From NCBI GenBank assembly GCA_021647705.1, contig JAKIUF010000002.1, positions 137,295 to 201,294 on the forward strand: a stretch of 64,000 nt of DNA. Direction: 5' to 3'. Made by a program: the position numbers and the translations under genes. Under the pieces are notes generated by a model that was not told the DNA's origin, made no database searches, and saw only the letters and a program-made list of their open reading frames with translations. Below, in pieces: positions 5,552-59,849 of this stretch (its first letter is position 1; each line of letters starts with the position of its first letter). This stretch comes from Gammaproteobacteria bacterium (lineage in GTDB: Bacteria > Pseudomonadota > Gammaproteobacteria > SZUA-152).

Positions 5552-5944
5552 TCTCTATTTTCAAGTTGTCCAATTGCCCATCTTCTGATCCAGAGCATAA
5601 AGTACCATAAAAACAATATGTTGTAAGTGTTATATTTATTCGAAAAAGTTAAATCTCTTCGGGTTTTATTCCCCGCCGCTTGCGGCGTAAGGTTGGAAAA
5701 AACCAAGGGTAGCTATATACGAAGCTTTATGAAAGCTATCAGCTGGCACCGTTTGTAAGAATACCCCGCTTTCGCGTAGCGAAAGTCGAGCTTAAGCGAG
5801 AGGGCTTGCCCCGGGGATTTTTATTCTCAACCTGTGGTTGATTTTTCGAAACTAGGGAATGCCCCATTTTGTCAAATATTATTGTGTTATGGTTTTGCTT
5901 TCATAGCTGGTTATTTAGCCAGTTTAATTTTACAGGAGGTGGCC

Positions 5945-6442
5945 ATGGATTCGGCAGTTTCTTCTTCTCCCTTTTTACGTTCTGTTGTTGAGGCTATTTG
6001 CGTGCGACATTACAGCATCCGTACGGAAAAGGCTTATATTAACTGGATCAAGCGATTTATTCTTTTTCATGACAAACGTCACCCCGCTAAAATGGGAGGC
6101 GTGGAGGTTGGGGATTTTTTGACCGATTTGGCGATGAATCGACAGGTGTCGCCCAGTACACAGAATCAGGGGTTAAATGCGCTGAATTTTTTGTACAAGG
6201 TGGTTTTGGAGCAACCATTGGGGGATGTGAAAAATTTGGTGCGGGCAAAGAACAAGCGTAAATTACCGGTGGTATTAACGGTTGATGAGGTGAGGGCGGC
6301 GGTGTTGCGTGAATTGAATGGGGTGCAGTGGCTGGCAGCTTGTTTAATGTATGGTTCTGGCTTGCGATTGATGGAGTGTTTACGTTTGCGGGTGATGAAT
6401 CTTGATTTTTTGCACCGCGCAGTTTATGTGCGCATATGGTAA
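5945..6442 (+). pseudogene. intI: Integron integrase intI, N-terminal about 165 aa fragment truncated by MITE copy 2
   Basis: [51 protein letters not shown] matches the N-terminal half of IntI and the right-hand intI; ends abruptly at the repeat at 6453. Confidence 0.65.
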
Positions 6443-44666: not shown

Positions 44667-46529
44667 ATGTCTATGAATGCAGAGCAACAATCGCAATTAA
44701 AACTGTTGATCGCGAAGGGTAAGGAACAGGGCTACCTGACGTATCGGGAGGTCAATGACCACCTGCCCAGCGGTATTGTCGAAGCGGATCAGATTGAAGA
44801 TATCGTTCGCATGATCAACGATATGGGCATCGTCGTGCATGAAGTGGCTCCAGATAAAGACAGTATCGTGTTGTCTGAAGATGGTGTGTCCACTGACGAA
44901 GATGCGGCCGAAGAGGCCGCCGCTGCACTGGCTAAAATTGACAGCGATTTTGGTCGTACCACCGACCCCGTACGCATGTACATGCGTGAAATGGGTACGG
45001 TGGAATTATTGACCCGCGAGGGTGAAATTGTCATTGCCAAACGCATCGAAGATGGCATTAATCAGGTAATGAATGCCCTGTCACATTATCCTGGCACTAT
45101 TTGCAAGGTATTGGACATTTCTGAAAAAGTGGAAGCGGGCGAAACCCGTCTTACCGATTTGCTTTCCGGTTTTGTGTCGGAAGACGATGAGATCCCCGTG
45201 CCTGCCCCCGCGCCAGCGGCAAATAAAAATGACAAAACATCGGAAGGCGGCAAGTCTGATGATGACGAGGAAGAGGCTGTAGATACCGGGCCTGATCCTG
45301 AAGAAGCAAAAGAGCGATTTGCCTCCATTAGAAAACTGTTTGGCAAACACGCCAAGGCAGCGGAAAAATATGGCCGTGCAGATAAACGCTGCGAAAAAAT
45401 ATACACTCAGATGGTCGATGAACTGGCGGAAATCAAGCTGGTGGCCAAAGTATCGGAAATGCTGGTGTCCAATGTGCGCGGAATCGTGAACAGTGTGCGC
45501 TCCCATGAACGGGTGATCATGGATATTTGTGTCAGCAAAGCCCGTATGCCACGCAAGGATTTCATCACCTCTTTTCCTGATAACGAAACAGACCTGAATT
45601 GGCTGCAACGACAGATTGATGCCAAAGAAAATTATTCTGCGGTGCTTGCGGATTATGCGGATGAAATTCGTCGTGCCCAAAATAAATTGGTAGCTTTGCA
45701 GGAAGAAGCGGGTATCTCCATTGGCGAAATCAAAGAAATTAATCGCAAGATGTCCATTGGTGAAGCCAAGGCCAGACGCGCCAAAAAGGAAATGGTGGAA
45801 GCCAACCTGCGTCTGGTGATTTCCATTGCCAAAAAATACACCAATCGCGGGTTGCAGTTTCTCGATCTGATCCAGGAAGGCAACATTGGCTTGATGAAAG
45901 CTGTGGACAAGTTTGAATACCGTCGTGGTTATAAGTTTTCGACCTATGCCACTTGGTGGATTCGTCAGGCCATCACCCGTTCCATCGCGGATCAGGCGCG
46001 CACCATTCGTATCCCCGTGCATATGATTGAAACCATTAACAAACTCAATCGTATTGCGCGACAAATGTTGCAGGAAATGGGACGTGAGCCCACGCCGGAA
46101 GAATTGTCAGAACGCATGGAAATGCCGGAAGACAAAGTGCGTAAAGTACTGAAAATTGCCAAAGAGCCTATCTCCATGGAAACGCCTATTGGTGATGACG
46201 AAGACTCGCGCCTAGGTGACTTTATTGAAGATGCCAACCTGCTGTCGCCAGTGAACTCAGCCACTTTCGAGGGTTTGCGTGAAGCTACGCTGGATGTGCT
46301 GGACGGCCTGACCGCCCGTGAAGCCAAAGTGCTGCGCATGCGTTTTGGTATTGACATGAATACCGATCACACGCTGGAAGAAGTCGGCAAACAGTTTGAT
46401 GTGACGCGTGAGCGTATTCGTCAAATCGAAGCCAAGGCCCTGCGCAAACTGCGCCACCCCAGCCGTTCGGATAACCTGCGCAGCTTTATCGACGCAGAAA
46501 AAACCGAACAGTCTTCATCGGGGTCTTAG
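44667..46529 (+). CDS. rpoD: RNA polymerase sigma-70
   Basis: Regions 1.1-4.2 including the acidic non-conserved region. Confidence 0.95.
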
Positions 46530-46596
46530 TCAGCGGTCTTTATTGGTCCCGCAATTTTCCTGATTGCGGGCAAGATGTTAGAATTTCCCACGTTTG

Positions 46597-46672
<76 letters not shown>

Positions 46673-46755
46673 TATAAACAATGAATTTCTTTGAGTACAT
46701 GAGGGCGCGCCAAACCAGCTTCTCGTCACGTACATTTTGAATTTCTGCGTAATTA

Positions 46756-46784
46756 TTGACAGCTAAAAACATTGGGCGTAAAGT
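46756..46784 (+). promoter_or_regulatory. Sigma-70-like promoter (TTGACA-17-TAAAGT) upstream of leader peptide and rtcB
   Basis: Near-consensus -35 with 17-bp spacer and TAAAGT -10 just downstream of tRNA-Ile2. Confidence 0.45.
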
Positions 46785-46826
46785 CCCGCCCACTATTTTC
46801 AATTCTAACTAAACAGGAGGTCATTA

Positions 46827-46877
46827 ATGTTAAAAACCCCAACATTCAAGAGCCTCGTGCCCTTTACCGCCCGGTAA
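46827..46877 (+). CDS. Putative 16-aa leader peptide MLKTPTFKSLVPFTAR with strong SD, followed by a hairpin
   Basis: AGGAGG 7 nt upstream of ATG; hairpin CCGGCCAGTACAGGCCGG at 46885-46902 then T-rich run. Confidence 0.3.
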   Translation: MLKTPTFKSLVPFTAR

Positions 46878-47006
46878 ATTTATCCGGCCAGTACAGGCCG
46901 GGCTCCTACAAAATAACAGTTTTTTAATTTTGTCGGCACTTGTCGATGCGTTGGATTATTACGTCCAGCGTAATTGTTCAACTGTGTCGCGCTGTAGGAG
47001 AAATGC

Positions 47007-47369
47007 GTGAAAATTAATAACAAATGGCTGGATGAGGTGGCATGTCTGTGTGCTGAACCGGGTCCAGAGGATGGTATAGATCCCCGTTACTTGAGTAGTG
47101 TTCAAGGGCGAATAGTGGATCACCAAAAATCATCAAGGTTATGCAATGAAATTGTAAAGGTGTTGTCGTTGGTGTTGGCAGGAGAAATGAGTAACCCGGT
47201 GTTACAAGCGCTGCTGGTTGTTGATGTTACTACAGAAGGTAATGGACAGTATTTACGTGTCAGCCTGGGGTGTCTGGAAGAAGGCGTGGAGATTGATGAA
47301 ATCCCAGGTATTAGCCGCGCTGATACAAGTTCAGGGTTATCTACGCTCAGTCATCGCACAACATATTAA
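47007..47369 (+). CDS. Hypothetical protein upstream of rtcB
   Basis: 120 aa, no recognisable motif; co-directional and adjacent to rtcB. Confidence 0.4.
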   Translation: MKINNKWLDEVACLCAEPGPEDGIDPRYLSSVQGRIVDHQKSSRLCNEIVKVLSLVLAGEMSNPVLQALLVVDVTTEGNGQYLRVSLGCLEEGVEIDEIPGISRADTSSGLSTLSHRTTY

Positions 47370-47433
47370 TCGTAAACATGTTCCGGCATTAAGGTTTCAT
47401 TATGTCGGATTAATTGAGCTAGGATGAATCGTT

Positions 47434-48631
47434 ATGCCTATTCAAAAAATAATCAGCAAGGGCAAAGTGCCGGTGAAGATCTATACCGATGAGGTGGAGG
47501 TAGCGGCGATGCAACAGCTCTATAACATGGCACAGTTACCCTTTATTCATAGTCATTTGGCGGTGATGCCAGATGTACATATGGGGAAAGGGGCGACTGT
47601 CGGATCAGTAATTCCGACTAAAGGCGCGATTATTCCGGCCGCTGTAGGCGTGGATATTGGTTGTGGTATGAATGCTGTTCGCTTGTCTATCAAAGCAAAT
47701 GATTTGCCGGATAATTTGCGTGCAATTCGTTCGACGATTGAAGAGGCGATACCCGTTGGTTATAACATGCATAAACATGATCGTGCCAGGGAATCGACGA
47801 TCCGTGCATTGTCCAGCGGATTGGACAGTATTTTAAGAAAGCATAAAAAAATCTATTCGATGCAGAAAAAACCCTATCAAACATGGATAAGGCAAATAGG
47901 AACATTGGGAGGAGGCAACCATTTTATTGAATTATGTCTGGATGAAAATCAGGATGTTTGGATTATGTTGCATTCGGGGAGTCGAGGTATCGGTAATGTC
48001 ATTGGTCAGTATTTCATTGCTTTGGCGAAAAAAGATATGGGTCAATATATTGTGAATTTGCCGGATAAAGATTTGGCTTATTTTACCCAGGGAGCCAGGC
48101 ATTTTGCTGATTATGTGGAAGCGGTTGAGTGGGGACAGGACTATGGCCATGGCCAATCGTCGTGAAATGATGCATTTCATTATCGAAGCTTTGCGGAAAA
48201 AACTGCGCAAGTTTGGTGTTACCAAAGAAGCGATTAATTGCCATCATAATTACGTGTCAAGAGAGTTTCATTTTGGTGAAGATATTTTTGTGACACGTAA
48301 AGGAGCGATTAGCGCAAGGGAAGGTGAGTTGGGAATTATCCCAGGAAGCATGGGCGCCAAATCATTTATTGTGAAGGGTAAGGGTAATCCGCAGTCATTT
48401 TGTTCTTGCGCACATGGTGCGGGGAGAAAAATGAGCCGTGCAGCGGCAAAGCGTCAATTCAGTGAGAGTGATGTGAACTTGCAAACAGAGGGCGTTGAAT
48501 GTCGGAAAGATAAAGGAATTATTGATGAGATTCCGGCTGCCTATAAAGACATCGATCAAGTGATGAAGCATCAAAGTGATCTGGTGGATATTGTGCATAC
48601 CCTTAAACAAATTGTCTGTGTGAAGGGTTAA
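47434..48631 (+). pseudogene. rtcB: RNA-splicing ligase RtcB, interrupted by a frameshift near 48104-48165
   Basis: N-terminal ORF (GVDIGCGM, GGGNHFIE, HSGSRGIGN) and C-terminal ORF (HNY, IPGSMG, SCAHGAGR) overlap out of frame at GGCCATGGCC. Confidence 0.6.
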
Positions 48632-48660
48632 AAAATATTTATAAAACAAAGGAGGAAATA

Positions 48661-48864
48661 ATGACAAGGCCAAGAGACTGGGTTGCCCGTTCGCCGTTGA
48701 TGCGTAAAGGCGGAGCCCATGTTAAATCGAAAACCGGGAAGCGTATGCGTGCTAGGCTTGATTTGGATGATGCTCTTTGTGAATGGTATGAAGAGGACAA
48801 ATTAGATATAAACGAAAAGGGGAGCCATCGGCTCCCCGTAGTTTATACGCTAGCCTCATTGTAG
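48661..48864 (+). CDS. Hypothetical small basic protein
   Basis: 67 aa, SD-like aaaggaggaaataATG. Confidence 0.35.
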   Translation: MTRPRDWVARSPLMRKGGAHVKSKTGKRMRARLDLDDALCEWYEEDKLDINEKGSHRLPVVYTLASL

Positions 48865-49289
48865 AATGTGAGATTATATTTCATTGATGGATGTTGATGA
48901 TTAAAAAAACAAAAAAATATCATTCTAATAAAAGTTTAATGTAAAGAAATATAAAGTTACAAAATAGGATGAATCACCTAAATTTATAGGTATTGTTATT
49001 TTTTAGATTAATGTGCAGAAATAATAATTGATATTTAATGTAAATATTTTATTGCAATTAAAAGTTTGTTAACTATAATGTCGCCAACATGAAAACTTTA
49101 GCCACAAATCAATCACCCTCCATCATCGCCCACAGGGCTATGCTGTTTTGTGGGTTGGGTAATAATTTGCAAATGAGCGGTATGATTTTAGATATAAACG
49201 GTAATTATAAAGAAACAATACTGATAAATAATACATTGACGTAATTAGTCTGCCACTTAGTGGAAGGCTAAAGCCTTCCCGGAAAAGAT

Positions 49290-49325
49290 AATTAAACCCT
49301 GGAAGGAAACGACCAGGGTTTTTTA
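49290..49325 (+). terminator. Rho-independent terminator-like hairpin
   Basis: CCCTGGAAGGAAACGACCAGGG plus T6. Confidence 0.55.
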
Positions 49326-49562
49326 TTGGGTACGATTTGAGAAAGTTGAAATAAATGAAACAGATAAAACAAATATTTAATACTGAGTCACGACTTATGA
49401 GACTTGCTCCATTTGACGAGATTCATTTTCCATCACGATTGGTAGAACCCATGAATGTACATTTATGTGCTTATTTTTTGGGTGACGCCATGAACTGACC
49501 TTCTGCCTATTAATTGCTTGCGGAAGGAGATAAAGAAAGCCTTCCGCGGGCAAGGTGTAAAA

Positions 49563-49610
49563 GCCCCGGAAGCCATCGAAAGATGTTGTTTACCGGGGTT
49601 TTTTTATGCC
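49563..49610 (+). terminator. Rho-independent terminator-like hairpin
   Basis: CCCCGGAAGCCATCGAAAGATGTTGTTTACCGGGG plus T7. Confidence 0.5.
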
Positions 49611-49848
49611 TCCAGCAACCCACAACGCGGTTAGCTGTGATCTTTAACAATTTGGGAATGTAACTGATTGCTGGATTTATCCAGTGTAAGGGTGAGCTTT
49701 GTCTGAAGGTTTTTGTTGTCAGGAAAGTTGTGCGGCGGATAGTTAACCCGCTGTATTGCTGGCTCGTTCAGCCACCCGTTTTTGTTAGGGGTATCGCTCA
49801 ATCAATGTAATGGTTGAGTGTTATTGATTTATCGGTAAAAAAATATAT

Positions 49849-49924
49849 TGGCAAGTGCGCTACCCGGTAGGCGGTCTCACTGTTAATGAGGTGTATGCCG
49901 GTTCGAGTCCGGCCTTGCCAGCCA
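49849..49924 (+). tRNA. tRNA-Asn(GUU)
   Basis: Hand-folded cloverleaf: acceptor TGGCAAG/CTTGCCA, anticodon arm TCTCA-CTGTTAA-TGAGG, T arm GCCGG-TTCGAGT-CCGGC, ends GCCA. Confidence 0.65.
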
Positions 49925-49953
49925 ATTAACTGTCTGAAAAGGAGGTATAGAAA

Positions 49954-50142
49954 ATGAAGGTGATGAAGCTAGAGAGACGATTTGAATCATTAATCGCGAC
50001 GATGAATGTACCTCAAACCCGAAAGAAAGGAACTGCAATTAATGCATTGTGGTTTTTAAGGGATGGGGCAATTGCTAACAGAACACATAAAAATGTTCAT
50101 GAAGCCAGTGAGATTGCGGTGAAATTAGCTAACGCTCATTAA
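49954..50142 (+). CDS. Hypothetical 62-aa protein inside the tRNA array (strong SD)
   Basis: AAAGGAGG 8 nt upstream of ATG. Confidence 0.4.
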   Translation: MKVMKLERRFESLIATMNVPQTRKKGTAINALWFLRDGAIANRTHKNVHEASEIAVKLANAH

Positions 50143-50169
50143 CGAAGAATGAATTTATTAAGCAGTATA

Positions 50170-50242
50170 TGCACCTGTAGCTGAGTCGGAATAGCGCGAC
50201 ACTGAAAATGTCGAAACGGTCGTTCAATTTGTCCCAGGTGCA
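50170..50242 (+). tRNA. tRNA-Phe(GAA)-like, probably degenerate (imperfect T-stem, no encoded CCA)
   Basis: Perfect acceptor GCACCTG/CAGGTGC, D arm, anticodon arm CGACA-CTGAAAA-TGTCG; T-arm pairs poorly. Confidence 0.4.
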
Positions 50243-50250
50243 TCAGATAT

Positions 50251-50327
50251 GGCCCGTTAGCATAGTGGTTGGATGCAAACGATTGTCAGGCGTGAGATCG
50301 CGGATTTAAATTCCGCACGGGCCGCCA
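50251..50327 (+). tRNA. tRNA-Asp(GUC)-like, degenerate (weak anticodon stem, T-loop TTTAAAT)
   Basis: Perfect acceptor GGCCCGT/ACGGGCC plus GCCA, D arm GCAT/ATGC, loop TTGTCAG gives anticodon GTC. Confidence 0.35.
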
Positions 50328-50586
50328 GTAGCGCCGCAGGTAATGACAGTAAACAACTTGTGAGCACGGCTGAAATATAGCCAAGGTGTGAACCAGAGGA
50401 CTTGGCCATTTGTTAATCCTCAGTTGGTTGTTTAACCAAAAAGTAGGTATGGCGCAGTTATTGATGAAATGGGGCGACCATTACTTGCGGTTTTTTTTAA
50501 AGTCACATTCGCTAAGCTGGCAGGGTTCTCAATCAATAATCGAGGGATCCCTGGTTGAGGCTTAGGATGTGGCACCAATGATTAAT

Positions 50587-50663
50587 GGTGAAAGTAGCTT
50601 AATGGGTAAAGCTTCTGATTGTGAATCAGATAGATGCCGGATCATCCCCGGTCTTTCACCCCA
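50587..50663 (+). tRNA. tRNA-His(GUG) with G-1, C73 and encoded CCA
   Basis: G-1 + GTGAAAG/CTTTCAC acceptor, anticodon arm TCTGA-TTGTGAA-TCAGA, C73, CCA; T-loop ATCATCC is non-canonical. Confidence 0.6.
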
Positions 50664-50696
50664 TTATTATTTAAATAATAAAAGGGAAAAGAAATT

Positions 50697-50772
50697 GGGT
50701 TGCTAGCTCAACTGGCAGAGCAATCGCCTTTTAAGCGATAGGTTCGGGGATCGTTCTCCCGGCAGCCCACCA
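50697..50772 (+). tRNA. tRNA-Lys(UUU)
   Basis: Acceptor GGGTTGC/GCAGCCC, D arm GCTC-AACTGGCA-GAGC, anticodon arm ATCGC-CTTTTAA-GCGAT, ACCA end; T-loop ATCGTTC unusual. Confidence 0.6.
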
Positions 50773-50927
50773 AACATCACATGTTACATCATTGTAATGT
50801 GATAACAGCGTTGAAACAGCACTGCATTGTTCAGCGGTTCAGGTTCTGTATGCCTGGCCTGCGCACCAACACTTAGCGAAAGCAATCGTACGGTGTGTAC
50901 AGATCAATTGTGGTGATTTCGACATCC

Positions 50928-51001
50928 ACCAGGATAGCTCAGTTGGGTAGAGCAACTGATTTTTAATCAGTTTGTCGCAGGTTCGATTCCTGCTCCAGGC
51001 A
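50928..51001 (+). tRNA. tRNA-Lys(UUU)-like with two acceptor-stem mismatches (possible pseudogene or att remnant)
   Basis: D arm GCTC-AGTTGGGTA-GAGC, anticodon arm ACTGA-TTTTTAA-TCAGT, canonical T arm GCAGG-TTCGATT-CCTGC; acceptor ACCAGGA/TCCAGGC mismatched; no CCA. Confidence 0.35.
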
Positions 51002-51423
51002 TCAGCTCAAAAAGCTGACGGGTAAAGGCGAAAGCCTGTGGTTCGAGTCCACATTAGGATATTTACATCCACAACAGGGTGATGCTTCGGTATATGTCAG
51101 CATAGATATTATATCTGTCTGACATTGACGACGCACCTGATGTCTTGTGAGATTTACTGCATTCTCATTAATGTATCTGGCAACGATATTGTTGTATTCA
51201 CAGGATTGTGAATAGCGTTATTGCCCCCGGATACATTTAGTCTGAATTGCGTATATCCCCCGCAGCTTGAGCGTGGGGCATCACCCGCCAAATTCAATAA
51301 AATTTTAAAATAAATAAGGAGAAAGGGTCATGAAAATTTGATTGTGTCGGTATGACAACCTGGTAACAGGTGCCGAGTAAGAGAATCGTCACGTAAATGT
51401 CACAAGTTGTAGGAGGTAACACA

Positions 51424-52575
51424 ATGTTTGCATATAAGCGTATTGTCGTTGCACAGCATGAGCGTGGTTTGTATCTGAAGGACCGTACGATTCAGGAGAT
51501 TCTCTCGCCAGGTGTGTACCGTATATTTGATCCGATGGGTCGAATTTCAATTGAAATATTTGATCTGACGACTCCGGAGTTTTCTCATCCTTATGAGGAT
51601 GTATTGATCAGGGAACAAAAGCCACTTTGTGACACATTTTTCCAGAGTGTTGAGCTGACTGAGACTGAGGTCGGACTGGTCTACAAAAACAACAAGCTGA
51701 AGGATGTTTTGCCACCGGGTACGCGCCAGTTGTACTGGAAAGGATTAATTGATGTGCAGGTAGAAATATTGAACATTGAAAATGACTTTGAAGTGCCACG
51801 GCAGAAAGTGAACCTGATCGCGCATGCACGATCGAATTCGCTGCCTGCCAGCGTTGTTAACTACGTGTACCTTGCTGAGGTAGCAGATAACCATATGGGT
51901 TTGTTGATTGTCGATGGTGAGATGGTGAAAGTGTTGACGCCGAGTTTGTACGTTTATTGGAAATTCAATCGCAAGGTCATTGTTGAGCAGGTTGACCTGC
52001 GTTTGCAGTCAATGGAAGTCACAGGTCAGGAGATTCTTACCAAAGACAAGGTGACTCTGCGTGTCAATTTGTCTGCCCAGTATGTTGTTGCTGATGCGGT
52101 GAAAGCACGCAATGGTCTTTCTGATTTTTCTGGCTACCTGTATCGTGAGTTGCAGTTTGCTTTGCGTCAGGTGGTGAGTTCGCGCACCTTGGATATCCTG
52201 TTGGTTAACAAGGGTGAGCTGGATCAGGCGATCTATAGCGTGATTCGTCCAAAGGCAAATGAGCACGGTATTGATGTGCGTAGTGTAGGTGTGAAGGATG
52301 TCATCCTGCCAGGTGATATGAAGGACATTCTTAACAAGGTTGTGCAGACTGAAAAGCTTGCGCAGGCAAACGTCATCAAGCGTCGTGAAGAAACAGCGGC
52401 GACGCGTTCGCTGTTGAACACGGCGAAGCTGATGCAGGATAACCCAACCTTGATGCGTTTAAAGGAGCTGGAAGTTCTGGAGAAAGTATCGGGCAAGGTT
52501 GATAAGTTGACCGTCTTCGGTGGTTTTGATGGTGTGCTGAATGACACAGTGCGGATCAATGTCCGTCCGGATTGA
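51424..52575 (+). CDS. SPFH/band-7 (stomatin/prohibitin-like) domain protein
   Basis: SPFH domain across the central region plus coiled-coil C-terminus; possible earlier start at 51397. Confidence 0.7.
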   Translation: MFAYKRIVVAQHERGLYLKDRTIQEILSPGVYRIFDPMGRISIEIFDLTTPEFSHPYEDVLIREQKPLCDTFFQSVELTETEVGLVYKNNKLKDVLPPGTRQLYWKGLIDVQVEILNIENDFEVPRQKVNLIAHARSNSLPASVVNYVYLAEVADNHMGLLIVDGEMVKVLTPSLYVYWKFNRKVIVEQVDLRLQSMEVTGQEILTKDKVTLRVNLSAQYVVADAVKARNGLSDFSGYLYRELQFALRQVVSSRTLDILLVNKGELDQAIYSVIRPKANEHGIDVRSVGVKDVILPGDMKDILNKVVQTEKLAQANVIKRREETAATRSLLNTAKLMQDNPTLMRLKELEVLEKVSGKVDKLTVFGGFDGVLNDTVRINVRPD

Positions 52576-52753
52576 TGTGAATGAGCACAGGCAGGGTCGG
52601 TAATTTGGCCGACCCTGCTATTTATTTTTCCAGCTGCTTTTCAGGCAGCGGGTATGTCAGAAAAACCAGGTCAGTATATTCCCGAATTGTGAAGTGTTGA
52701 ATATCATAAGTGATTGGTTGTGATAGTGTAATATAATAGACAGGGGTACTGAT

Positions 52754-53329
52754 ATGAACGTTTATCCACTCATTCTCAAGCTGGATAAGGCAGGCAATCC
52801 ATTGAAGTGGATTGACTATGAGGCGGCTATTAATCTCTATGCCAAAGACCTGGTTATCACTTCTTTGGGTGATAAAAGTATGGTCTTTCATGGTGGTGTG
52901 AATGCGATTTCGCACAGGCGCTCAAAGATCGAGGTTGGCTCAATCCTGTTAACGACAGCACGGGTGAATAATCGCAAATGGGTAGCCGGCGCTGTACATC
53001 CACTGACCAACCGTACACTGTTTCGGCGTGACGGTATGCTGTGTCTATATTGTGGTGATTCTTTCGCAGAGCGAAATTTAACGCGCGACCATGTTGTGCC
53101 CACCAGTCGGGGTGGCAGTGATTCATGGACGAATGTTGTTACGGCCTGTGTACGCTGTAATAATCGTAAAGGTAATTCCCTGCTGGAGGACATTGACATG
53201 AAACTGCAAGCTGTACCGTTTGCGCCCAACTATGCGGAATGGATGGTGTTGTCTAATCGCCGCATCATGGGGGACCAGATGCAGTTTTTGAAGGCTCGCT
53301 GCCCAAAGGGCAGTCGGTTGTGGAGTTGA
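52754..53329 (+). CDS. HNH endonuclease
   Basis: CLYCGDSF..TRDHVVPTSRGGSDSWTNVVTACVRCNNRKGN HNH motif with Zn-ligand cysteines. Confidence 0.8.
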   Translation: MNVYPLILKLDKAGNPLKWIDYEAAINLYAKDLVITSLGDKSMVFHGGVNAISHRRSKIEVGSILLTTARVNNRKWVAGAVHPLTNRTLFRRDGMLCLYCGDSFAERNLTRDHVVPTSRGGSDSWTNVVTACVRCNNRKGNSLLEDIDMKLQAVPFAPNYAEWMVLSNRRIMGDQMQFLKARCPKGSRLWS

Positions 53330-53394
53330 CGATGTTGCCGGGGTCTGTTTGCTGACAGACCCCGGATTTCTTGGAAGGTATTTTTAAAAACGGG

Positions 53395-54027
53395 TTATTT
53401 TATGGTTCCATGCACACGTTTGTTGCGTAGCCATTTGAGCAGGGGCTGCCATTGCTCGATGTCCTGAGCGACCAAAGACGGTGTCAGTTCAAAAATTCCT
53501 AACCCCTGTTCTTCGGCATGAATGTAATTTTGTGTGTCACGCAGGGTAGCAATGAAAGGGATTTTCAAGCTCTTCAGGAATCTTTCCAGTTTGTGATAAA
53601 CCAGTGTATTTTCCCGTACGCGGTTGGCGATAACAGCCAGCTTGGTCTGTTTTCGCGAGACTTTGCCGACTAACAATAAATCACGGATGAAATGTGATGC
53701 GGCACGAATGTCGATGGGGGAAGGTAATACCGGAATGAGAATAGTGTCGGCGCGTTTCACCATGGCGGTGAGGTCTTTGCCACTGATGCCTGCGGGGACA
53801 TCATAAATGGCCACATCAATGTTGCGGGGAATACGCATGCCTTGTTCGGTGCCGTCGATACCGAGAATTTCCCAATCATCTTCTGAGCGAACGGCCAGCC
53901 ATTCCAGGCCGGATTTTTGCGGATCAAAGTCCACCAGAGCGACAGCTTTGCCCTCAGTGGCGTAGTGGCTGGCAAGATTACTGGCCAGTGTGCTTTTACC
54001 GCAACCTCCCTTGGCGTTCAATAACAT
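53395..54027 (-). CDS. ParA/MinD-family P-loop ATPase (orphan, no adjacent parB)
   Basis: Deviant Walker A NAKGGCGKST. Confidence 0.75.
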   Translation of the reverse strand: MLLNAKGGCGKSTLASNLASHYATEGKAVALVDFDPQKSGLEWLAVRSEDDWEILGIDGTEQGMRIPRNIDVAIYDVPAGISGKDLTAMVKRADTILIPVLPSPIDIRAASHFIRDLLLVGKVSRKQTKLAVIANRVRENTLVYHKLERFLKSLKIPFIATLRDTQNYIHAEEQGLGIFELTPSLVAQDIEQWQPLLKWLRNKRVHGTIK

Positions 54028-54129
54028 AATGCTGCGCATGATCGCGTCCTTTTTATCGGTCTGAATTTATCGGGCTGCCATTAGCCGCTGGTCGATTATA
54101 GTGGCAGACCGGTAAAAAAGTCGCGGGTA

Positions 54130-55623
54130 TTATGGCGTGTTGTCATCATTGGGTAGATTGTCAATTTCCAGTGATTTCCATATGTTATCGACTTTTTCTT
54201 TCACTTCTTCAGTCATTTGAATGGGCTCCCCCCATTCGCGGTTAGTTTCGCCGGGCCATTTGTTGGTGGCATCAAAACCCATTTTTGAGCCCAGCCCACT
54301 CACCGGGGAGGCAAAGTCCAGATAGTCGATAGGTGTGTTTTCGATGATGGTGGTATCGCGCGCGGGGTCCATGCGCGTGGTCATCGCCCAGATTACATCC
54401 TCCCAATTGCGGATATCCACATCGTCATCGCAGACCACCACGAACTTGGTGTACATAAACTGGCGTAAAAATGACCACACTCCCAGCATCACGCGCTTGG
54501 CATGGCCGGGGTACTGTTTTTTCATGCTCACGCAGGCCCAGCGATAGGAGCAGCCCTCGGGCGGTAGATAAAAATCCACGATTTCCGGGAATTGTTTTTG
54601 CAGAATGGGTACAAAAACCTCGTTCAATGCCACGCCCAATACGGCGGGCTCATCGGGCGGGCGGCCCGTGTAGGTGCTGTGATAAATAGGCTCGCGGCGA
54701 TGGGTGATACGCTCAATGGTAAATACCGGGAATTTATCCACTTCATTGTAATAGCCGGTGTGGTCGCCAAAGGGACCCTCGTCAGCGACAACGCCTTCTT
54801 CCAGATAACCCTCCAGCACAAACTCAGCAGAGGCAGGCACCTGCAACCCGGAATTACCGCATTGCACCACCTCGGTTTTGGAGCCACGCAGCAGACCCGC
54901 GAAGCCGTATTCGGAGAGAGCATCCGGCACCGGGGTCACCGCCGCGAGGATGGTTGCCGGGTCTGCGCCCAGAGCCACAGCAATGGGGAAGCGCTCGCCA
55001 GGGTGTGTCGCACACCAGTCGCGAAAATCCAGAGCACCGCCACGGTGGGCCAGCCAGCGCATGATCACCTGATTTTTGCCGATGACCTGCTGACGGTAAA
55101 TACCTAAATTTTGTCTGTCTTTGTCCGGGCCTTTGGTGACCACCAGCCCCCAGGTAATCAATGGTCCCGCGTCCCCGGGCCAGCAAGTCTGGATGGGCAG
55201 CTTGCCTAAATCGACATCATCACCTTCGATAACAATATCCTGACAGGGGGCTTTTTTCACCACTTTGGGGGCCATGTTTAGCACCTGTTTAAACACAGGC
55301 AGCTTGTCCCACGCATCCTTCATGCCCTTGGGCGGATCAGGCTCTTTCAGAAAAGCCAGCAGTTTGCCCACTTCACGCAATGCCTCCACGGATTCCTCGC
55401 CCATGCCCAGAGCCACACGCTCCGGGGTGCCAAACAGATTGCCCAATACAGGAAAGTCTGAGCCCACGACATTTTCAAACAACAGTGCCGGGCCACGCGC
55501 ACGCAGAGTGCGGTCGCAGATTTCGGTCATCTCCAGATTGGGGTCCACCACCTGGCTGATGCGTTTCAGCAGGCCACGTTTTTCCAGCTGGGTAATAAAG
55601 TCGCGCAGATCCTGATATTTCAT
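54130..55623 (-). CDS. ubiD: 4-hydroxy-3-polyprenylbenzoate decarboxylase
   Basis: UbiD-family signature across the full length (497 aa). Confidence 0.9.
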
Positions 55624-56086
55624 CGTTTTTTATTTTTAACAGGAGAATTACAATCCCCCGTCCTCAAGCCACATTGTTGTTTTCACCCCTTTTCCTCTTG
55701 AAGGCTAAGCCGGGTAGGGTGGAACAAGCGTAGCGGTTCCACCAAACGGGAAAAGGGACATGTTCAAAGTTCGATCAGCTATTGTCGTTTGCCAGTGAGT
55801 TGTTGTTGCATGAGGGCTTTTTTCTCCTGTTTCAGGCAGTCCGGTTTTTGTTGTAGAGTTCTTTTGTCAGCGGTCGTGGGCACAGAGGCAATTTGTTGTT
55901 TTTTATAGCCTATTTGGTGGAACCGCTGCGCTTGTTCCACCCTACAGTTTTATGCTGTATTGGATGAGGGTGAATGGCATCGAAGTTAATTTTTGACCCT
56001 CATCCTGGTTTTTAGCCATAACCCGAAGCCACTGGTTTTAGCCACTGGAGTCTTCACAGAGATGATCAGCATACCAGAAAGCAGGA

Positions 56087-58915: not shown

Positions 58916-59849
58916 CTATCCGGACAAAACCGCACCCAATGGACTCACCACCGCATTTCCGCCCCGGTTCAGTACATGGGTATAGATTTGAGTGGTACGC
59001 ACATCTTTATGCCCCAACTGTTCCTGCACCGTTCGGATATCCATGCCCCGCTCCAGCAAATGCGTGGCAAAAGAATGACGCAACGTATGACAACTGGCGG
59101 GCTTGTGAATCCCCGCCTTGCGAATCGCCTTCTCATCAAAATGATGCCGCCGTTCCACGCCCGAACGAGGATCAATACTGCCACGCCCATTCCGTTGGCG
59201 CATTGGGATATTTTCGTGCCAGAGCATGGGGAAGGTAAACACTGCCAAAACCATCTGCCAAATCTTTATCGTGCGTTTGTCGTCGATTTTCCAGGTGTCG
59301 TTGCAAAGGCACAATCAACTCATCTGACAGCGTCACTACCCGGTCTTTCCCTCCTTTAGCGTTATGCACATAAATCGCACAGCGCAAAAAATCAAGATTC
59401 ATCACCCGCAAGCGTAAACATTCCATCAATCGCAAACCGGAACCGTACATCAAACAGGCCGCAAGCCAATAAAGACCATCCAGCCCTTGTAGAACCGCTT
59501 GTACCTCTTCACGCGTCAACACCACCGGAATCTTTTGCCGTGTTTTGGCGCGCGCCACCCCTTTCAAGCCCTCAATGGGCTGGTCCAACACCACGCGATA
59601 AAGAAACATCAAGGCATTAAAAGCCTGATTCTGTGTACTGGGGGCAACATTTCGATCTACCGCCAAATGCGTCAAAAATGCTGTTACTTCCCGTGCCCCC
59701 ATTTCACGAGGATGCTGTTTGTTATGGAAATAGATAAACCGCTTCACCCAGCCGCTATCAGCTTTTTCGGTTTTCCGGCTGTAATGACGCACACGAATTG
59801 CATCCGAAATCGAACACAGGAAAGGCGAAGAATAATTTGTCGAATCCAT
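58916..59849 (-). pseudogene. intI: Integron integrase intI with apparent frameshift near 59175-59200
   Basis: N-terminal 225-aa ORF (..[17 protein letters not shown]) and overlapping C-terminal ORF (..[50 protein letters not shown]) in different frames; IntI-specific extra domain present. Confidence 0.8.

Follow-up and report, generated by a model that had tools for sequence, protein, structure and literature searches.

How bacteria survive attack on their tRNAs and ribosomes, whether by colicins, toxin-antitoxin RNases, antibiotics or the anticodon nucleases of phage defence, is an active question, and two described systems come close to the locus analyzed here. One is the RNA repair system predicted by Burroughs and Aravind (Nucleic Acids Res 2016), which, as summarised in 10.1101/312249, unites the RNA ligase RtcB, a Band-7 protein (slipin) and a tRNA-like RNA (b7a-tRNA). 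In this purely predicted system, as outlined in that summary, the b7a RNA and the slipin would form an RNA-protein cofactor for RtcB. The other is formed by the L-arrays, in which supernumerary, horizontally spread tRNA genes lie beside a conserved HNH gene and often near rtcB (PMC8421152); inducible tRNA arrays have been tested in one cyanobacterium alone. Here, we describe a region in which parts of both systems stand together, between tRNA-Ile2 and a parA-like gene, in a 64,000-nucleotide (nt) stretch of a gammaproteobacterial genome (lineage SZUA-152; assembly GCA_021647705.1, contig JAKIUF010000002.1, positions 137,295 to 201,294, forward strand), hereafter called the window.

L-arrays are long, with up to 43 genes, and are commoner than gene accretion predicts (PMC8421152). 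The trn array of Anabaena sp. PCC 7120 stays unexpressed until translation is impaired; translation inhibitors induce it, and it then favours survival. It is co-regulated with the HNH gene all8564 and with rtcB (PMC8421152). Its repressor TrcR, a ribbon-helix-helix protein restricted to cyanobacteria, controls the array, all8564, rtcB, the slipin gene alr0740 and the gene for the 30S factor, rsgA (PMC10272220). The rtcBA operon of E. coli and Salmonella is described as being regulated by RtcR and, in Salmonella rsr-yrlBA-rtcBA, as accompanied by the tRNA-like Y RNA YrlA (10.1101/312249, PMC10272220). Endonucleases also occur with tRNA genes in phages, the example cited in PMC8421152 being the homing endonuclease SegB in a tRNA cluster of phage T4.

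The region between tRNA-Ile2 and parA

The stretch from tRNA-Ile2 to parA is probably an accessory island that was acquired horizontally and bundles three modules for a damaged translation apparatus. We have fairly good confidence in this reading, the modules of which are an operon for an RbfA paralogue, RtcB and a 67-amino-acid (aa) protein, a tRNA array with an HNH endonuclease gene, and a b7a RNA with a slipin gene. Apart from the tRNA array, which is listed further below, the principal features of the region are as follows.

46596-46672, plus strand: tRNA-Ile2, anticodon CAT (ARAGORN; Rfam, 74 bits), left boundary of the variable region
46756-47006, plus strand: control region of the first operon, with a promoter-like site, a leader open reading frame (ORF), two hairpins and a CUCC
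47007-47427, plus strand: RbfA-paralogue gene (Pfam RBFA), frameshifted by one extra C at about 47305
47434-48631, plus strand: rtcB RNA ligase gene, both halves matching Pfam RtcB, with a frameshift from one extra G at about 48146
48661-48864, plus strand: orf67, a 67-aa basic protein encoded downstream of rtcB and conserved in relatives
50928-51095, plus strand: b7a tRNA-like RNA, a cloverleaf and hairpins, orthologous to the element of 24 loci
51424-52575, plus strand: slipin/SPFH (Band-7) protein, 383 aa (Pfam Band_7, 82 bits), no obvious membrane segment
52754-53329, plus strand: HNH endonuclease, 191 aa, of a family that accompanies tRNA arrays
53395-54039, minus strand: ParA-like ATPase, right boundary; host flank, outside the island

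The region had been picked out from its letters as an AT-rich island adjoining tRNA-Ile2 and as a candidate tRNA repair or supply module, and our comparisons bear out both descriptions. Its GC content is 0.34 to 0.46 across 47000-52000 as against 0.50 to 0.57 in the flanks, and the tRNA-CAT gene, which lies downstream of dnaG-rpoD, matches E. coli genes annotated as tRNA-Ile along its whole length, with 85.7% identity. The slipin, the tRNA-like RNA and RtcB match the predicted repair system, and the array and HNH gene match the L-arrays. When the island was searched by megablast against E. coli complete genomes and plasmids, tRNA-Ile2 was the sole match, so that a well-sampled enterobacterium is not its source.

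The right flank consists of the parA-like gene and ubiD, and the relatives are metagenomic Gammaproteobacteria (L-numbers, such as L001, designate the comparison loci). ParA, UbiD and the Na/H exchanger are 91 to 98% identical at the aa level in relatives in which the island is full (L057), partial (L046 and L055) or reduced to one small gene (L053 and L058). The SPFH-HNH-ParA trio of the original prediction has the domains ascribed to it, but its ParA member belongs to the conserved host flank. On the left, the rpoD-tRNA-CAT junction is also seen in L053, L055, L056 and L058; the left junction is not shown by L046, which starts inside the rbfA-like gene, or by L057 and L059, in which the sequence upstream of the promoter differs. 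Across relatives, the island is variable, being full, partial or reduced, with the following content in individual loci.

L057: the whole island, its rbfA-like and rtcB genes intact; 97.4% nt identity over 7.4 kb
L059: leader, rbfA-like, rtcB, orf67, orf51, orf47, tRNA-Asn, orf62, tRNA-Phe, tRNA-Asp, a 17-codon slipin remnant, tRNA-Pro, HNH
L046: rbfA-like, rtcB, a small gene, a degraded Lys tRNA, HNH
L055: leader, a small gene, HNH
L056: leader, an rtcB remnant, a small gene
L053 and L058: leader and a small gene only

The original prediction had invoked phage counter-defence and had stated that the window holds no integrase. The latter statement does not hold, as two truncated tyrosine-recombinase ORFs with Phage_int_SAM_4 and partial catalytic domains are present at 59172-59849(-) and 5834-6442(+); neither abuts the island, from which they lie 5 kb and 40 kb away, past conserved host genes. 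In L046, the counterpart of the former is split into two ORFs, and the latter locus has a 70%-similar match. These fragments would suit an origin from a phage or another mobile element that once used its tRNA array to counter the tRNA-depleting immunity of a host, as would the HNH homologues inside the tRNA clusters of Salicola phage SCTP-2 and in other large phages, the RtcB genes of jumbo phages, and the overlap of the anticodon set with well-established targets of anticodon nucleases. We nevertheless judge such an origin very improbable, since there are no phage structural, replication or lysis genes within the island, no close relatives of its slipin or HNH protein in 2.9 million viral contigs, and no direct repeat of the tRNA-Ile2 3' end in 46500-56000 to act as an attachment site, and since dozens of unrelated bacteria carry the b7a/slipin/RtcB core on their chromosomes. 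An island model built on an attachment site and an integrase was likewise rejected, as the tRNA 3'-end repeat is missing and the closest ORF of the integrase family is a truncated one, 5 kb away past conserved host genes. Membership in an anti-phage defence system was rejected as well: with the PADLOC models, the island proteins gave generic HNH-domain matches only (PtuB and Cas9; E 3.5e-9, about 58 aa), and the slipin, RtcB, the RbfA paralogue and the small ORFs gave none.

The RbfA paralogue, rtcB and orf67

RtcB seals RNA ends bearing 2',3'-cyclic phosphate and 5'-OH groups. In the window, rtcB is split into 47434-48165 and 48104-48631, which correspond to Pfam RtcB positions 1-244 and 242-426; comparison with an intact orthologue of 99% identity traces the frameshift that had been noticed in the gene to one surplus G at about 48146. 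The gene is intact elsewhere, with 398-aa orthologues in L057 (99% identity), L046 (95%), L059 (90%) and L051 (88%). The ORF at 47007-47369, in correction of the original prediction, belongs to a second frameshifted gene, whose repaired product has 139 aa and scores 42.4 bits against Pfam RBFA (gathering cut-off, 34.7). Because the product passes the Pfam threshold but misses the NCBIfam equivalog cut-off (20.6 against 51), we take it to be a paralogue and not the housekeeping RbfA. The paralogue family comprises 125 representative clusters of proteins of about 140 aa, and its intact orthologues in L057 (93.5%), L046 (84%), L059 (64%) and L051 (49%) are each encoded directly upstream of rtcB.

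The split rbfA-like and rtcB genes recur identically in three Logan read-set assemblies (SRR32233990, SRR32233992 and SRR32233993) and are therefore no artefact of a single assembly. Programmed frameshifting in rtcB was also considered and rejected: the gene of the relatives is uninterrupted and lacks the extra G, the sequence reads as having no combination of a Shine-Dalgarno (SD) sequence with a slippery stop, and a shift would swap out the conserved AMANRR segment. Beyond the two single-nt insertions (C at about 47305, G at about 48146), the window differs from L057 by 13 nt deleted at 48824 and by a small number of indels in spacer sequence.

Judged from its sequence, the island is decaying in this genome, with indels in the rbfA-like gene, rtcB and the tail of orf67, and with tRNA-Phe and tRNA-Asp genes that lack canonical T-arm features. 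By the same token, its ligase arm is dead here, and activity could persist at most in the tRNAs, the b7a RNA, the slipin and the HNH protein. As rtcB is frameshifted here and intact in relatives, we regard the island as a degraded member of the RtcB/Band-7/b7a-tRNA system. In the mechanism that we propose, damage to tRNAs or ribosomes would induce the island; RtcB, possibly aided by the b7a RNA and the slipin, would reseal tRNA or rRNA cut by ribonuclease toxins, a reaction established for RtcB elsewhere, and the RbfA paralogue and orf67 would handle stalled or damaged ribosomes.

The first operon is preceded by a set of elements, all of which, like the CUCC described below, are conserved in six lineages.

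46756-46784, plus strand: promoter-like TTGACA-17-TAAAGT (promoter scan, 10/12)
46828-46878, plus strand: SD and 16-codon leader ORF MLKTPTFKSLVPFTAR, conserved in six lineages
46863-46878 and 46883-46902, plus strand: two leader hairpins, conserved in six lineages

These elements suggest that the operon is under leader control. The CUCC at 46903-46906, on the flank of one hairpin, is able to pair with the GGAG SD (46997-47000) of the RbfA-paralogue gene and so to mask it; stalling of a ribosome on the leader would therefore unmask this SD, the CUCC no longer pairing, and switch the operon on. Since the predicted pairs are almost all invariant, we infer this mechanism from the arrangement of the elements. 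A promoter and leader control had been proposed before; the promoter-like site is in place, and conservation of the 16-codon ORF is what argues for the control. The leader and its hairpins are kept in L051 although the RbfA-like protein there is only 49% identical, and in L053 and L055, deletions have brought the leader directly upstream of the 67-aa gene.

The orf67 family consists of 12 proteins with an invariant MRKGGxHxKSK...R...WY pattern and no match in Pfam. The gene follows rtcB in L046, L051, L057 and L059, lies within the array in L001, and is the last remaining island gene in L053 and L058. Its 3' coding part contains a stable hairpin (48819-48837; fold z = -5.8), and the 13-nt deletion at 48824, which lies between GGGGA repeats, causes the tail to be read in another frame than in L057. 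The hairpin is kept across lineages in which the frames differ (GEPxAPRS versus GSQWLPVV). In L051, it has a 19-bp stem followed by a U-run 13 nt ahead of the stop codon (z = -10.5), and a distant copy in L001 has a hairpin of unrelated sequence at the equivalent place (z = -5.0). ArfA is made from non-stop mRNA that is truncated at a hairpin inside its ORF. As orf67 shares the arfA gene architecture and has no detectable sequence homology with it, we propose an analogous logic and not membership in the ArfA family: the orf67 protein may be produced, from non-stop mRNA, only once the capacity for ribosome rescue is exceeded. The idea that orf67 is an ArfA homologue was rejected on sequence (hhalign, PDB profile search and Pfam), the likeness being one of gene architecture alone.

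The tRNA array, the b7a RNA, the slipin and the HNH protein

The original prediction had counted about six tRNA or tRNA-like genes in a cluster. ARAGORN calls seven tRNA-type genes in the window, tRNA-CAT and six on the plus strand at 49849-51001, and Rfam RF00005 recovers all six with 49 to 66 bits (E 4e-8 to 5e-13; gathering score, 29), well above chance expectation. The cloverleafs are thus corroborated in all six, but the last, taken for a Lys-like tRNA, is the b7a RNA, the anticodon position of which varies freely. The remaining five lie within 924 nt on one strand.

49849-49924, plus strand: tRNA-Asn (GTT), G73, encoded CCA
50170-50244, plus strand: tRNA-Phe (GAA), A73, no encoded CCA, mismatched T-stem
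50251-50327, plus strand: tRNA-Asp (GTC), G73, CCA, two anticodon-stem mismatches, T-loop TTTAAAT
50587-50663 (ARAGORN call, 50588-50663), plus strand: tRNA-His (GTG), G-1 (50587) opposite C73, encoded CCA, T-loop ATCATCC
50697-50772, plus strand: tRNA-Lys (TTT), A73, encoded CCA, T-loop ATCGTTC

The odd T-loops of tRNA-His (ATCATCC), tRNA-Lys (ATCGTTC) and tRNA-Asp (TTTAAAT) and the weak T-stem of tRNA-Phe, all remarked on previously, are confirmed in the cloverleaves; those of tRNA-His and tRNA-Lys are of the A54/T58 type, and tRNA-Asp is without C56. The discriminator bases (G, A, G, C and A for Asn, Phe, Asp, His and Lys) fit each identity, by the identity elements of E. coli; the G-1:C73 pair is the mark of bacterial tRNA-His, CCA is encoded in four of the five genes, and the anticodon stem of tRNA-Asn has undergone a compensatory C-G to T-A change relative to L059. 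With these features, the array tRNAs look like tRNAs that were once under selection. The tRNA-His gene is identical in L057. In L059, the tRNA-Asp orthologue has a canonical T-loop (TTCGAAT) and one mismatch fewer, and because the tRNA-Phe orthologue keeps a perfect T-stem (GGTCG/CGACC) and an encoded CCA, we regard tRNA-Phe of the window as degraded.

Good tRNA scores, fitting discriminator bases and CCA in four of five genes could also describe ordinary, canonical host tRNA genes that merely adjoin rtcB. We give this explanation almost no credence. None of the five genes matched an E. coli chromosomal tRNA by blastn, as against 86% identity for the adjacent tRNA-Ile2; the array is absent from L046, L053, L055 and L058 despite their shared flanks, L046 retaining a degraded Lys gene as its only remnant; three of the T-loops are noncanonical; and the sixth gene is a non-decoding tRNA-like RNA. 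On these comparisons, the array tRNAs are not host-like, as had been supposed from their structures. Array tRNAs of different loci are only 65 to 74% alike, so common ancestry of individual array tRNAs is not demonstrable. Two further observations concern the Lys gene: it gives the sole E. coli match of any array tRNA, with 76.9% identity on a 10.4-kb plasmid (NZ_CP061761.1, 6323-6400), and the Lys(TTT)-like gene of L046 (L046:1994-2130), which is not called by ARAGORN, carries an insertion after the anticodon loop with a 16-nt hairpin, GGAACGTGCACGTTCC.

The identification of the sixth gene as a b7a tRNA-like RNA, non-decoding and no tRNA, follows from its pattern of variation among loci. In a slipin scan with one genome per species, which yielded 34 loci, 24 have a tRNA-like gene called by ARAGORN at 246 to 475 nt upstream of the slipin gene (423 nt in the window), with a nominal anticodon of CAT, GAT, TAA, GGT or TGT or one that cannot be called. 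The window copy, called tRNA-Lys (TTT) by ARAGORN, is 76 to 77% identical to these elements whatever their anticodon and is further from any Lys tRNA. RNAalifold places the 24 copies in a cloverleaf with a 5-bp acceptor stem; 13 of its 19 pairs show compensatory substitution, and the anticodon loop differs among copies, some having a tetraloop there. In the window, the cloverleaf (50928-51001) has a 5- to 6-bp acceptor stem with an A.A mismatch, and 3' of it lie a hairpin (51002-51017), a second T-arm-like element (about 51040-51055) and further hairpins. The hairpin and the second T-arm-like element after the cloverleaf are conserved in the gammaproteobacterial group (51002-51060 in the window).

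The slipin has 7990 homologues, named "slipin family protein" or "PA4582," and is 65 to 75% identical across Gammaproteobacteria; most of the 34 loci encode RtcB within about 2.5 kb downstream of the slipin gene. In the Bacteroidota loci L025 to L028 and L031, the last tRNA called by ARAGORN is 560 to 690 nt upstream of the slipin gene, and about 200 to 650 nt upstream of that gene, after the last tRNA, is a conserved structured sequence ending in the T-arm-like GGTTCGAATCC. This sequence may represent a b7a-type RNA, divergent and missed by ARAGORN.

Arrays are joined to this core elsewhere as well, nine slipin loci having at least three extra tRNA genes upstream of b7a (5 in the window, 12 in L001, 6 in L002, 3 in L003, 4 in L005, 7 in L006, 10 in L024, 5 in L040 and 9 in L043) and five Bacteroidota slipin loci having 2 to 4. 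An HNH homologue is present in seven of the nine array loci versus none of about 25 array-less loci. In Gammaproteobacteria and Betaproteobacteria, the order of the array loci is fixed (regulator, array, accessory gene, b7a RNA, slipin) while HNH identity is just 40 to 50%. With five tRNAs and the b7a RNA, the array of the window is by length alone no L-array; we assign it to the L-arrays because of its HNH partner and of relatives with 9 to 12 genes. Within the fetched stretch of each record, HNH-anchored plasmid regions contain 27 tRNA genes in Methylibium PM1, 33 in Variovorax, 37 in Burkholderia pM7012, 28 in Mycobacterium intracellulare and 25 in Nostoc HK-01, and HNH-anchored phage regions contain 9 in Salicola jumbo phage SCTP-2 and 0 in Ralstonia phage RsoM2USA.

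In a structure search, the HNH core matched the DNA-nuclease fold of Cas9, IscB and McrA, and the N-terminal beta domain had no informative structural match; the protein probably promotes spread or maintenance of the array. Its fold is also that expected of a selfish cassette in which a homing or nicking HNH protein copies itself and the tRNA genes to new sites, along the lines proposed for SegB of phage T4, the tRNAs are passengers without value for the host, and tRNA-Ile2 is a shared insertion hot spot. For the array/HNH pair, this account is plausible: the HNH family lies beside arrays on conjugative plasmids and in jumbo phages and is also found alone or beside a relaxase, close relatives show the island as a deletion patchwork, two of the array tRNAs are degrading, and a homing role is suggested in PMC8421152 itself. 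Even so, we think it unlikely, because a fixed gene order across classes at 40 to 50% HNH identity is unexpected from random co-insertion; because arrays persist where the HNH slot is occupied by an ArfB-like gene (L043 and L033) or by another recurrent gene (L040); because the Anabaena array raises survival under translational stress (PMC8421152); and because anticodons are skewed in slipin-linked arrays.

Several other genes recur at these loci. A 139-aa RF-1-domain (ArfB-like) gene lies between the array and the b7a RNA in some of them (L043:5649-6068, L033:3082-3489, L063:11820-12338), and a "peptide chain release factor-like protein" is encoded near the Variovorax plasmid array. Pfam has no match for a further, uncharacterised protein of about 310 to 335 aa that reappears at RtcB/slipin loci with 37 to 58% identity (L040:8269-9276, L003:4785-5744, L051:9055-9990, and also L033, L008 and L012). 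Two families of divergently transcribed helix-turn-helix (HTH) proteins accompany the arrays, one of about 200 aa flanking gammaproteobacterial arrays (L001:1342-1935(-), L003, L033, L038, L040 and L043) and one of about 125 to 140 aa at betaproteobacterial arrays and on the Methylibium plasmid (L005, L006, L024, L062:1269-1646(-)). In a slipin-linked array of a gammaproteobacterial metagenome-assembled genome, L002:1372-1457 is an 86-nt tRNA with a CTA anticodon, labeled "Pyl" by ARAGORN and potentially an amber suppressor. In L048:9644-9888 and L059:5723-5961, only the last 17 to 19 slipin codons remain, followed by tRNA-Pro and the HNH gene, and a relaxase gene beside this remnant in L048 suggests that a mobilisable element carries it.

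Having set out these alternatives, we return to the reading of the island as a set of modules for a damaged translation apparatus. If it acts like the Anabaena trn operon, the array would provide replacement or decoy tRNAs during translational stress. Its anticodon content lends this damage-response reading mild support. Across 14 slipin-linked arrays, which are few and phylogenetically non-independent loci, the anticodons for Asn, Asp, His, Tyr, Lys, Glu and Gln make up 35 of 75 genes versus 40 of 149 in full plasmid arrays (p = 0.004), and those for Ser, Thr, Gly, Ala and Val 3 of 75 versus 36 of 149 (p = 7e-5). The enriched families are targets of colicin E5, PrrC, zymocin-type and related anticodon nucleases.

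Sequence comparison establishes the gene identities, the orthologies, the b7a RNA structure and the co-occurrence patterns. Going further, we tentatively propose a wider hypothesis, which we hold to be possible but short of probable: L-type arrays and Band-7/b7a-tRNA/RtcB systems may together make up a single modular "first-aid kit" for translation that is widespread in Proteobacteria and Bacteroidota. It would comprise a leader peptide that senses stalling, or else a dedicated HTH repressor; spare or decoy tRNAs that are inducible and lean towards families attacked by anticodon nucleases; a tRNA-shaped RNA with a slipin scaffold; RtcB; and, as accessories directed at the ribosome, the RbfA paralogue, the ArfB-like protein and orf67, the last made from non-stop mRNA as ArfA is.

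A number of points weigh against the functional reading of the island. Every functional step is inferred by analogy, and the b7a RNA is without experimental validation to date according to the summary in 10.1101/312249. The ligase and RbfA-paralogue genes are pseudogenes here and modules are freely lost in relatives, which argues for weak or episodic selection. The leader base pairs are nearly all invariant, so that covariation support for them is weak; no convincing promoter was found for the array itself, and the HTH regulators that flank the arrays of other loci have no homologue anywhere in the window. With E. coli ArfA, orf67 reached an hhalign probability of 0.75%, a PDB profile search with orf67 (E<=10) returned no ArfA chain, and Pfam gave no ArfA hit.

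The remaining features of the region are an AT-rich spacer and three small ORFs. One of these, orf62 (49954-50142), and the orf67 described above (48661-48864) correspond to the two small ORFs of the original prediction; both are conserved in relatives.

48865-49848, plus strand: AT-rich spacer, GC 0.34-0.36
49052-49079, plus strand: promoter-like TTGCAA-16-TATAAT (promoter scan, 10/12)
49089-49244, plus strand: orf51 (51 aa), 55% aa identity in L059 and 96-100% in L057
49355-49498, plus strand: orf47 (47 aa), 66% aa identity in L059 and 96-100% in L057
49954-50142, plus strand: orf62, a small SD-led ORF inside the array, 97% in L057 and 77% in L059, at the same position between Asn and Phe

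By reading of the sequence, a G+C stem and a T-run lie downstream of each of orf51 and orf47. None of the three ORFs has a family match, and the AlphaFold2 model of orf62, with three helices, is of low confidence (pLDDT 64) and too poor for a fold search. Outside the island, between ubiD and the Na/H-exchanger gene, there is a 33-nt inverted repeat (55714-55746 / 55913-55945), 97% complementary, with arms 166 nt apart.

Comparison with known systems

Each module of the island is of a known or predicted kind, and the literature that we searched treats arrays and b7a/slipin/RtcB systems separately. In that literature, we found no report of tRNA arrays fused to b7a RNA, slipin and RtcB across Proteobacteria and Bacteroidota, nor of the RbfA paralogue, the arfA-like small gene, the conserved leader or the two divergent HTH families flanking the arrays, although the 2016 paper of Burroughs and Aravind may hold some of these. 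In many Proteobacteria and Bacteroidota, the two systems adjoin each other in a gene order that is fixed, together with additional genes directed at translation. This yields a testable hypothesis for a joint role of the b7a RNA, the slipin and the arrays and nominates the leader, the RbfA paralogue and the arfA-like small gene as parts unreported in the literature searched. As the window copy is degraded, it is L057 that holds an intact version.

Phage tRNA clusters with homing endonucleases resemble the island in having divergent clustered tRNAs beside an HNH-type endonuclease and an anticodon set overlapping nuclease targets, and tRNAs of phage T5 replace those depleted by host immunity. The island differs in that it is chromosomal, contains cellular repair genes and has no phage genes. 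Leader-peptide translational attenuation is known from inducible genes of the ermC/cat type. The leader region of the island has a comparable layout, with a short ORF behind an SD and then hairpins, of which one is able to sequester the next SD, and this layout is kept even where the downstream gene differs. In the island, by contrast, there is no antibiotic-resistance gene, and the control is putative. ArfA, like orf67, is a small, very basic protein with a strong hairpin in its ORF shortly before the C-terminus, which is poorly conserved in orf67; in L051, the hairpin and U-run are predicted to end transcription 13 nt before the stop codon.

The rtcBA and rsr-yrlBA-rtcBA systems combine RtcB with a tRNA-shaped noncoding RNA and an RNA-binding scaffold protein and are induced by translation damage, as we propose for the island. 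The window differs in having no RtcR (sigma-54/CARF), RtcA, Ro60/Rsr or Y RNA, the slipin standing in place of Ro, and in its apparent leader-peptide control and its inclusion of bona fide tRNA genes. The system of Burroughs and Aravind, as far as the summary in 10.1101/312249 describes it, is closer: a slipin/Band-7 gene is preceded by a tRNA-like RNA gene, and RtcB is in the cluster. Compared with that description, the rtcB of the window is a pseudogene and lies upstream, in its own leader-preceded operon with the RbfA paralogue and orf67, five tRNAs and the HNH gene are inserted, and RtcA, RtcR or another regulator is missing.

The Anabaena L-array and TrcR regulon share with the window the HNH companion, rtcB, the slipin and a factor for 30S maturation, which is rsgA in Anabaena and an RbfA paralogue in the window. 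The window differs in size and layout, with five tRNAs versus 23 to 43 and one 7-kb cluster versus a scattered regulon, and in its regulators, which are TrcR in cyanobacteria and divergent HTH_3 proteins at proteobacterial loci, with none in the window; its kind of short, slipin-linked array is also anticodon-skewed relative to full L-arrays. Homologues of the HNH protein of the window flank L-arrays of 25 to 37 tRNAs on plasmids of Nostoc, Burkholderiales (Burkholderia, Variovorax and Methylibium) and Mycobacterium.

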